Origin: an uncultured Poribacteria bacterium
GTDB lineage: Bacteria; Poribacteria; WGA-4E; WGA-3G
Assembly (NCBI GenBank): GCA_951813565.1
Contig: OX638351.1
Coordinates: forward strand, 1,184,001 to 1,248,000
Reading direction: 5' to 3'
DNA: 64,000 bases
A model generated the notes under the pieces. That model saw nothing but the letters and a program-made list of their open reading frames with translations, was not told the origin of the DNA and did not search any database. Within the stretch, counting starts at the first letter, position 1. The number at the start of each line of letters is the position of its first letter. The position numbers and the translations under genes are program-made. Positions 24,243-24,797 of the stretch are shown here, piece by piece.

Positions 24243-24797
24243 TTATTCTCCGCCGAATGCTCTATGATAGGCAAGAATTGCTTCAAAGAAATCGACAAAG
24301 TTTTTGAATTTCTCATTATTGTCAACTTGGTTTATGGCTTGTGTTAGCGCATCTTTTAGGTCTTCCACTTCTGGTTTGCGTGCTGCAGCATAAGCCAATT
24401 TTGGTTTTAACATGATCAATTCGTTTCGGTTAAACTCTTCACTCATTTGAATCTTTTTAACAGCCCCGTATACTTTTCGGATTTGGGATGTTTTGAGGTT
24501 TCTGGCGAGTTTACGTCCTAAATTTTCAGCTGCAGTGACGAGCGGTTCTCCGCCTTTCTCAATAACCTCTGAAATATCAACTTTTTGTTGGGCAACTATT
24601 TCCACTTCAACGTTACTTGCAGTAGGACCTTTTTGCCCTTGTGTAATCGTATATGAGGTGACTAACTGTCCTTCAACGAGCTCGTCAAATTGGATGTCTT
24701 TTAGTCCCGTGCGATGGAAGTGGACATCTTTACCTCCATCATCTGGTTGTATAAATCCGAAACCTTTTAGCAAGGTTTTAATTTTTCCTGTTGGCAT
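24243..24797 (-). CDS. csm2: Cold-shock domain fused to Csm2 (small subunit/Cas11), 184 aa
   Basis: N-terminus [28 protein letters not shown]...[10 protein letters not shown] (CSD RNP1/RNP2); C-terminus [32 protein letters not shown] (Csm2); GAAGGAG RBS. Confidence 0.9.

Follow-up and report, generated by a model that had tools for sequence, protein, structure and literature searches.

Why would the small subunit of a type III-A CRISPR–Cas complex carry a cold-shock domain (CSD)? The question is raised by csm2 in a 64,000-nucleotide stretch of DNA, hereafter the window, from an uncultured, sponge-associated Poribacteria bacterium (assembly GCA_951813565.1, contig OX638351.1, positions 1,184,001–1,248,000). 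We find that the CSD–Csm2 fusion in this csm operon is real and in frame, with exactly the coordinates first noted, and that the protein is a known subunit with a new, selected and lineage-restricted domain architecture.

An in-frame CSD–Csm2 fusion

The fusion is encoded by a single open reading frame (ORF) of 184 amino acids plus stop that spans 24243–24797 of the window on the minus strand and translates with zero internal stops. Its parts, together with the translation signal, are as follows.

24804–24809, minus strand: Shine–Dalgarno sequence AAGGAG, 6 bases 5′ of the csm2 ATG (24795–24797), read from the sequence
24603–24797, minus strand: CSD, residues 1–65, five β strands (Pfam PF00313, AlphaFold2, Foldseek)
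24567–24602, minus strand: variable 12-residue linker, residues 66–77 (low identity, dN/dS of 0.41, lowest-confidence blocks of the structure model)
24246–24566, minus strand: Csm2/Cas11 helical bundle, residues 78–184 (Pfam PF03750, AlphaFold2, Foldseek)

All three CSD motifs were found, namely KGFGFI (residues 11–16), DVHFH (residues 24–28) and a third motif at residues 54–63. Pfam PF00313 matched residues 3–64 (E = 1.6e-15, 57.2 bits, cut-off 27) and covered profile positions 2–64 of 66, while PF03750 (Csm2_III-A) matched residues 84–183 (E = 2.5e-30, 106 bits, cut-off 24.8) and the NCBIfam Csm2 model TIGR01870 scored 68.8 bits against a cut-off of 30.6. The original prediction of a CSD in frame with Csm2, behind one ribosome-binding site and uninterrupted by a stop, is thus borne out by translation, Pfam and the AAGGAG sequence. 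The longest possible frame would comprise 216 amino acids from 24893 and runs into the cas10 stop at 24850. Because homologues are mostly 183–187 amino acids long with an MPTGK N-terminus, we assign 24797 as the conserved start; an MPTGK start is found in Verrucomicrobiota CSDs too. In their source databases these proteins are labeled simply Csm2; among ten fused or unfused proteins whose cluster names were consulted, one bears the name "CRISPR-associated protein Csm2".

A stop or frameshift between the domains would have undermined the fusion, and none was found: the 184-residue frame is open throughout, and metagenome contigs covering the csm2 ORF, which came from three studies, showed no insertion or deletion inside 24243–24797 among the indel rows listed. 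One contig (X1) is identical over the ORF and may derive from the window's own source sample. Coverage in X4 consists of two overlapping contigs, and X5 carries a diverged stretch of equal length at 24634–24717; the X4 and X5 contigs are diverged relatives. One run that contains the stretch carries the label sponge metagenome. A 162-nucleotide contig at 24790–24951 came from a run guessed to be RNA (X8) and was not used as expression evidence.

Distribution and conservation of the fusion

We found the fusion in 18 of 176 Poribacteria species genomes, every one of them from the same family: 12 belong to the genus of the window (which is included), five to a second genus and one to a third. Sixteen of these genomes encode a full-length protein (query residues 1–184, no stops) down to 58% identity, and the remaining two hold broken versions, truncated in G125 and split over two contig ends in G074. 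At the protein level, both Pfam domains occur in 103 of the 120 clusters (90% identity) among the matches listed, down to 53% identity. Recovery from 18 of 176 genomes and 103 of 120 listed clusters excludes an assembly artifact.

To place the architecture more widely, we searched 1.84 billion representative sequences exhaustively with phmmer and re-scored the best 150 matches with custom hidden Markov models (HMMs) of the two domains. Four proteins among these best 150 contain both domains, namely P0137, P0138 and the fragments P0140 and P0146. Since any two-domain protein should exceed the 70-bit floor of that list, the CSD–Csm2 architecture appears to be confined to this one family. The rarity expected by the original prediction was therefore upheld by the HMM search, with one family among all matches above 70 bits. 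We found no description of a CSD–Csm2 or CSD–Cas11 fusion, of basic Csm2 tails or of Poribacteria type III systems in open-access papers and bioRxiv. The same literature offered no report to confirm a further statement of the original prediction, that some other type III proteins are known to carry CSDs; the words "cold shock" in one type III-B preprint refer to a culture step rather than to a domain.

Compared with the window protein over 71 fused rows, the CSD averages 72% identity, the linker 38% and Csm2 77%. Ratios of nonsynonymous to synonymous substitution (dN/dS, Nei–Gojobori) among the 16 genomic copies are 0.16 (CSD), 0.41 (linker) and 0.09 (Csm2), although these figures are rough because dS is near saturation. 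At a dN/dS of about 0.16, these substitution rates indicate that the CSD is under purifying selection.

Fold and putative nucleic-acid-binding features of the two domains

A structural model of the fusion was built with AlphaFold2 (AF2) on 79 sequences, with a mean predicted local distance difference test (pLDDT) score of 90.9 and a predicted template modeling score (pTM) of 0.70. Modeled CSD strands span residues 4–9, 13–18, 25–28, 45–54 and 57–65, in blocks with pLDDT of 89–94, and helices span residues 75–81, 83–98, 103–117, 124–128, 130–140, 142–157 and 161–180. The linker corresponds to the lowest pLDDT blocks, at 79–82. Foldseek matched the CSD to CspC, CspA and CspE with target TM-scores (TMt) of 0.81–0.87, root-mean-square deviations (rmsd) of 1.6–2.5 Å and 43–48% identity over the domain; CspC (8xyf_B) gave a TMt of 0.87 and CspA (1mjc) 0.82. 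The matches include CSD complexes with single-stranded DNA (6lmr, and 2lxj with dT7) and with RNA (3pf4). The Csm2 part matched chains of the Lactococcus lactis and Enterococcus italicus Csm complexes (9g9f_B, TMt 0.60, rmsd 3.3 Å, 118 columns; 6xn3_C, TMt 0.54).

An ungapped phmmer alignment with CspA (E = 6e-12) was used to compare the nucleic-acid-binding face. The KGFGFI sequence is identical in the two proteins and corresponds to the RNP1 motif, with consensus K-G-F-G-F-I; F13 and F15 of the fusion map onto it. H26 aligns with the first RNP2 Phe of CspA and F37 with the Tyr of CspA GYKSL, the relevant CspA residues being W11, F18, F20, F31, H33, F34 and Y42 (the Tyr of GYKSL). Among the 71 fused rows, an aromatic residue occupies position 13 in 68 and position 15 in 69, positions 26 (His/Tyr) and 49 (Tyr/Phe) keep their character in all 71, and F27 and F37 are invariant.

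Several observations weigh against nucleic-acid binding by the CSD or against its importance to the family. RNP2 is altered, such that CspA VFVHF aligns with VHFHR and the canonical motif was not recovered, and positions 28 and 29, which align with the last RNP2 His and Phe, vary across the family. The first strand is 2–3 residues shorter (KTLL versus KWFNxx) and has no canonical Trp/Phe. The RNP1 aromatics are gone in P0102 (RSGYI), P0105 (SSGRI) and P0106 (NFGRI), three of the most divergent members, and the net charge of residues 1–70 is −2, whereas the tails that replace the CSD in sister proteins (described below) are net positive. Unfused Csm2 sisters occur in the window's own genus, so the CSD is not essential to the family, and there are natural CSD-less derivatives, P0098 with an in-frame deletion of about residues 10–51 and P0085 beginning at about residue 65. 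Because RNP2 aligns as VHFHR with variable last positions, we regard the fusion's domain as a derived CSD. The CSD is thus derived but selected, with part of the canonical aromatic face retained, and nucleic-acid binding by it is likely.

In the Csm2 domain, T103, Q105, R107, Y136 and R140 are invariant across the alignment. In S. epidermidis Csm2, according to PMC10289348, the start of helix α2 and a Tyr and an Arg of α3 touch phosphates of the target RNA, Csm2 lines the target-RNA side of the Csm complex, and the smaller complex contains two Csm2 copies. The invariant residues may be equivalent to these RNA contacts, as suggested by their motif pattern rather than by an alignment.

Relation to known proteins

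Canonical standalone Csm2/Cas11 proteins from S. epidermidis, S. thermophilus, L. lactis and E. italicus share with the fusion their Pfam and NCBIfam family, the helical bundle and a gene position between cas10 and csm3, and the TSQIR and Y..xR pattern of the fusion resembles the target-RNA contacts described in PMC10289348. The fusion differs in that a folded CSD of 65 residues and a linker of 12 residues precede the bundle, and it is only 22–26% identical to the solved chains. With CspA, CspC, CspE and CspB, which act as RNA chaperones and antiterminators, the fused CSD shares its fold and an identical RNP1 (KGFGFI), but unlike these cold-shock proteins (Csps) it is not free-standing, its RNP2 reads VHFHR and its shorter first strand lacks Trp. 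Against the NCBIfam equivalogs for CspA, CspE and CspD, the fused CSD scored at most 57 bits versus cut-offs of 111–152 (best, 56.9 versus 120); by these scores it belongs to no named Csp orthologue group.

The nearest published analogy that we found is the CnuB/McrB GTPase of type I CoCoNuT systems, which, as described in PMC11090510, likewise bears an N-terminal CSD-like OB fold on a defense subunit and belongs to systems whose authors predict RNA targeting. The resemblance is limited to the CSD itself; CoCoNuT is an unrelated system, of the type IV restriction kind, and the partner domain is unrelated. A CSD-type defense protein, the retron Se72 family effector (NF038236), matched the fusion weakly (E = 1e-8, 35 bits), far under its 82-bit cut-off, which reflects general CSD similarity only; we claim no membership.

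The genome encodes one other CSD, in a 316-amino-acid protein (L001 745–1695, minus strand; G000:C1 ~3701317–3702267) that starts with a CSD (71 bits), continues through a long low-complexity linker and ends in an Hfq/Sm-like region, for which the matches to Hfq_1 (E = 1.4e-4) and Hfq (E = 7.9e-4) both stayed below cut-off. In most genomes of the family, open frames of ~310–350 amino acids likewise hold a CSD of ~44–49% identity. PF00313 has two matches in this genome in all, and a free-standing Csp gene was not found there. The fused CSD is only 47% identical to the genome's other CSD gene, and CSDs from other phyla reach 54–56% identity.

Alternative N-terminal extensions of Csm2

Closely related Csm2 proteins that lack a CSD were found in 31 further Poribacteria genomes, 30 of them with 56–81% identity over residues ~66–184. 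These tail-bearing sisters share with the fusion the same operon, the same repeat family and a junction motif, VIE.GGEPLV, that is common to fused and unfused Csm2. They differ in what precedes that junction, which is not a folded CSD but a basic tail of ~13–45 residues in which Arg, Asn, Gln and Gly are abundant (one example is MGNYSGRNRQGPRNQRHGGNRGQQAPYKLPDR). The AF2 model of one sister, P0113, has pLDDT of 47–48 for residues 1–20 and above 90 for the bundle, with no secondary structure before residue 32, and the tail is accordingly predicted to be disordered. Disordered basic tails and CSDs are both types of element tied to non-specific binding of single-stranded nucleic acids.

N-terminal extensions are also frequent beyond the sisters. 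Among the 126 Csm2-only proteins in the best 150 matches, 83 have 20 or more residues ahead of the bundle, a basic R/G/Q/N/P-rich tail (at least 15 amino acids, net charge of at least +3 and at least 45% RGQNP) is present in 20, and about a dozen have a K/E-rich, helix-like extension of 50–100 residues. The original prediction had called Csm2 normally standalone; this stands insofar as a CSD on Csm2 is rare, but it is too simple given these extensions and the basic tails of the sisters. K/E-rich, helix-like (coiled-coil-like) extensions of 50–85 residues were noted in P0258, P0193, P0173, P0176, P0254 and P0272; the extension of P0239 is 100 residues long and contains ERGEH/RGER repeats.

A maximum-likelihood tree of the Csm2 body (36 rows, 110 columns), from which the truncated G125 locus (L122) was left out, groups 11 fused sequences together, including that of the window. 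Six changes between fused and unfused labels are needed to explain the tree, and strongly supported branches force at least two. Because a clade with 98/97 support mixes fused L125 and L126 with unfused L145 and L148, the N-terminal module must have been exchanged at least twice, the exact count being uncertain with so short an alignment. The CSD and the basic tail each occur on both Csm2 subtypes, for which recombination at the conserved junction is the simplest explanation. Sequence comparison thus makes the N-terminus of Csm2 in this lineage look like a slot that accepts appendages of a non-specific nucleic-acid-binding type.

Possible roles of the fused CSD

We propose, with moderate confidence, that every Csm2 copy bears a flexibly tethered CSD that would hold the single-stranded flanks of the target and thereby aid its capture, unfolding and residence. 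This comes close to the original prediction, in which several RNA-unwinding domains could help the complex to engage structured or imperfectly matched targets. Csm2 keeps T103, Q105, R107, Y136 and R140 and therefore most likely assembles as usual, which would place at least two copies, with their RNA-contact-type residues, along the minor filament. Each copy would carry its CSD on the variable 12-residue linker. The CSDs would bind single-stranded nucleic acid non-specifically and with low affinity beside the segment paired with CRISPR RNA (crRNA), target-transcript flanks being the first ligand. Such binding would raise the local target concentration, keep the RNA unfolded and prolong its residence on the complex. 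The analysis shows the fusion, its conservation, operon setting and fold, and the exchange of tail and CSD; Csm2 assembly, its copy number and nucleic-acid binding by the CSD are what we infer.

A broader and more tentative idea is that the Csm2/Cas11 N-terminus is a general, exchangeable slot in which RNA-binding cassettes make the minor filament a multivalent antenna for single strands. In many lineages its occupants would be disordered R/G-rich tails, in Poribacteria a folded CSD, and transcripts would be captured and unfolded before crRNA pairing, which would set the speed of target search and the tolerance of structured RNA.

Single-stranded DNA (ssDNA) might instead be the ligand, with the CSDs holding the non-template strand of the transcription bubble and presenting it to the HD nuclease of Cas10. 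The HD motif and GGDD are both kept in Cas10 here, bacterial CSDs bind ssDNA as well as RNA (6lmr and 2lxj versus 3pf4), and type III-A immunity depends on transcription (PMC6611850). The sequence itself gives nothing that would separate DNA from RNA binding, however, and Csm2 sits on the target-RNA side of the complex (PMC10289348). We consider this alternative unlikely. The R/G-rich tails of the sister proteins also speak against it, arginine- and glycine-rich tails being more typical of RNA binders.

We find it similarly improbable that the CSD has ceased to act as a general nucleic-acid binder and is a protein–protein or regulatory module that, for example, docks on a neighboring subunit or an ancillary factor, or that fills the target channel until the correct RNA arrives. 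The altered RNP2 and first strand and the loss of RNP1 aromatics in some members would fit such a role, and a pTM of 0.70 in a two-domain protein hints at a preferred domain orientation. Yet the aromatic-type positions 13, 15, 26 and 37 are kept in 68–71 of 71 rows, the linker is the least conserved part of the protein, and a disordered basic tail, which fills the slot in the sisters, is not a docking domain.

That the CSD is a neutral, dispensable accretion, or an artifact with Csm2 made from an internal start, is very doubtful: the CSD-less variants P0098 and P0085, the unfused sisters and a GTG codon at V65 lend it something, but the CSD has a dN/dS of 0.16 and is about as conserved as Csm2 (72% versus 77%), 16 full-length genomic copies, with identities as low as 58%, keep the fusion intact, no Shine–Dalgarno sequence precedes the V65 GTG (the sole candidate start), no promoter-like site was found on the minus strand inside the ORF, and the next Met after residue 1 is M118, within the bundle.

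Operon and genomic neighborhood

Flanked by cas10 and csm3, the fusion gene is part of a complete minus-strand type III-A operon in which every gene exceeded its III-A NCBIfam equivalog cut-off. Downstream follow, in order, a CARF protein (Cas_APE2256), cas4 and cas1, and a large CRISPR array. The annotated neighbors are as follows.

24850–27132, minus strand: cas10/csm1, with HD motif LHDIGK and GGDD (IYAGGDDLF); TIGR02578, 558.7 bits; Pfam HD, Csm1_B and Cas10 palm2
24823–24848, minus strand: 26-nucleotide palindromic, dispersed element GTCGGGTAAAGCTTGCGAAACCCGAC, like a repetitive extragenic palindrome (REP), between the cas10 stop and the csm2 ribosome-binding site
23402–24232, minus strand: csm3 (Cas7); TIGR02582, 214.8 bits
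22338–23393, minus strand: csm4 (Cas5); TIGR01903, 253.5 bits
21145–22317, minus strand: csm5; TIGR01899, 160.4 bits
19981–21117, minus strand: ancillary protein of the CARF family (Cas_APE2256); Pfam PF09651, E = 1e-33
14127–17311, plus strand: CRISPR array with 30-nucleotide repeat GTTTCTATTCCACATTGGTGCGATTAAAAG and a period of 64–69 nucleotides; 46 copies, repeat family D1

Upstream is a type I-D-like module of cas3, cas5d, cas7d, cas10d and cas6, of which cas3 is supported by Pfam and the other four were named by reading the ORFs alone.

We compared the surroundings of csm2 (~20 kb) in 16 loci with the fusion and 20 without it. Gene order is nearly uniform, with cas10 directly 5′ in all 16 fused and 19 of 20 unfused loci, and csm3 directly 3′ in 15 of the fused loci and in every unfused one. 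Both kinds of locus use one CRISPR repeat family, which (at most five mismatches) occurs near 10 of the 16 fused and 13 of the 20 unfused csm2 genes. The exception to the downstream order of csm3 is L122, in which a deletion joins csm2 to csm4. The deletion in L122 (G125:C132, ~9215–10411, minus strand) takes out csm3 entirely, together with the last part of csm2 and the opening ~120 codons of csm4, and leaves a single frame of 408 amino acids comprising CSD–Csm2 (residues 1 to ~149) and Csm4 (residue 122 to the end); this is probably a decaying locus.

The 26-nucleotide palindrome folds with a 7-base-pair stem and occurs in 13 genome copies at up to three mismatches, versus none for the reversed control. 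Three metagenome runs show a depth spike and loose ends at 24822–24856, over this palindrome. It may be a REP-like element that affects expression of cas10 relative to csm2. In L119 (G100:C1), three tandem copies of a different short element, translated as KQVGGNSDSRHIE, lie between cas10 and the CSD–csm2 gene, and the window csm4 ends with the same peptide-coding string (…VGGNSDSR); the shared string points to a further small dispersed repeat that inserts itself between the genes of these cas operons. The C-terminal 139 amino acids of the CARF protein (19981–20400), which follow its Cas_APE2256/CARF domain, gave no credible Pfam match at E up to 1. Across related loci, this downstream protein matches at 57–72% in some and at 23–27% in others, and is absent in the rest.

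The main CRISPR repeat has 48 matches across the whole window at up to four mismatches. Within the array, an identical adjacent spacer pair occurs at 14670 and 14737 (region 14670–14833) and an identical repeat–spacer–repeat unit at 16950 and 17148 (region 16950–17244). Two degenerate cores of the main repeat (TATTCCAAATTGGTTCGATTAAAAA), 70 nucleotides apart, lie in the gap between cas3 and cas10 (27206–27300).

A separate mini-array (17970–18137) comprises three 30-nucleotide repeats unlike the main repeat and two identical spacers. The 28-nucleotide core of the spacer is a hairpin that matches 19196–19223 at 86%, a site upstream of where Cas1 homologues start aligning, and a 13-mer, CCCTCCCACAAGA, occurs five times in the window versus ~0.03 expected. 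The apparent self-target of the mini-array may be a dispersed hairpin element rather than a protospacer. The original prediction had tied the CSD to the mini-array and its imperfectly matched target. No such co-occurrence emerged: the mini-array repeat (at most five mismatches) is absent from all 16 fused and all 20 unfused loci, giving 0 of 36, and the hairpin motif of the supposed spacer recurs elsewhere in the window.

Implications for type III-A complexes

The small subunits of the Cas11 type are generally regarded as simple helical spacers along the target RNA. A conserved, selected CSD that can be swapped with a basic disordered tail suggests that some III-A complexes may have non-specific RNA-binding arms of their own. 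Through this natural variant it becomes possible to address how structured or nascent transcripts are located and opened by type III complexes. Csm complexes are already in use for transcript knock-down (PMC10497410), and an accessory RNA-chaperone module could have practical use there. If the N-terminus of Csm2 is indeed an antenna for single strands, the CSD version would be a natural Csm complex armed with an RNA chaperone, and could serve to improve Csm tools for RNA knock-down. The CSD–Csm2 fusion itself is narrow, belonging to one family of an uncultured phylum, and N-terminal appendages of Csm2 are perhaps more general than this fusion.

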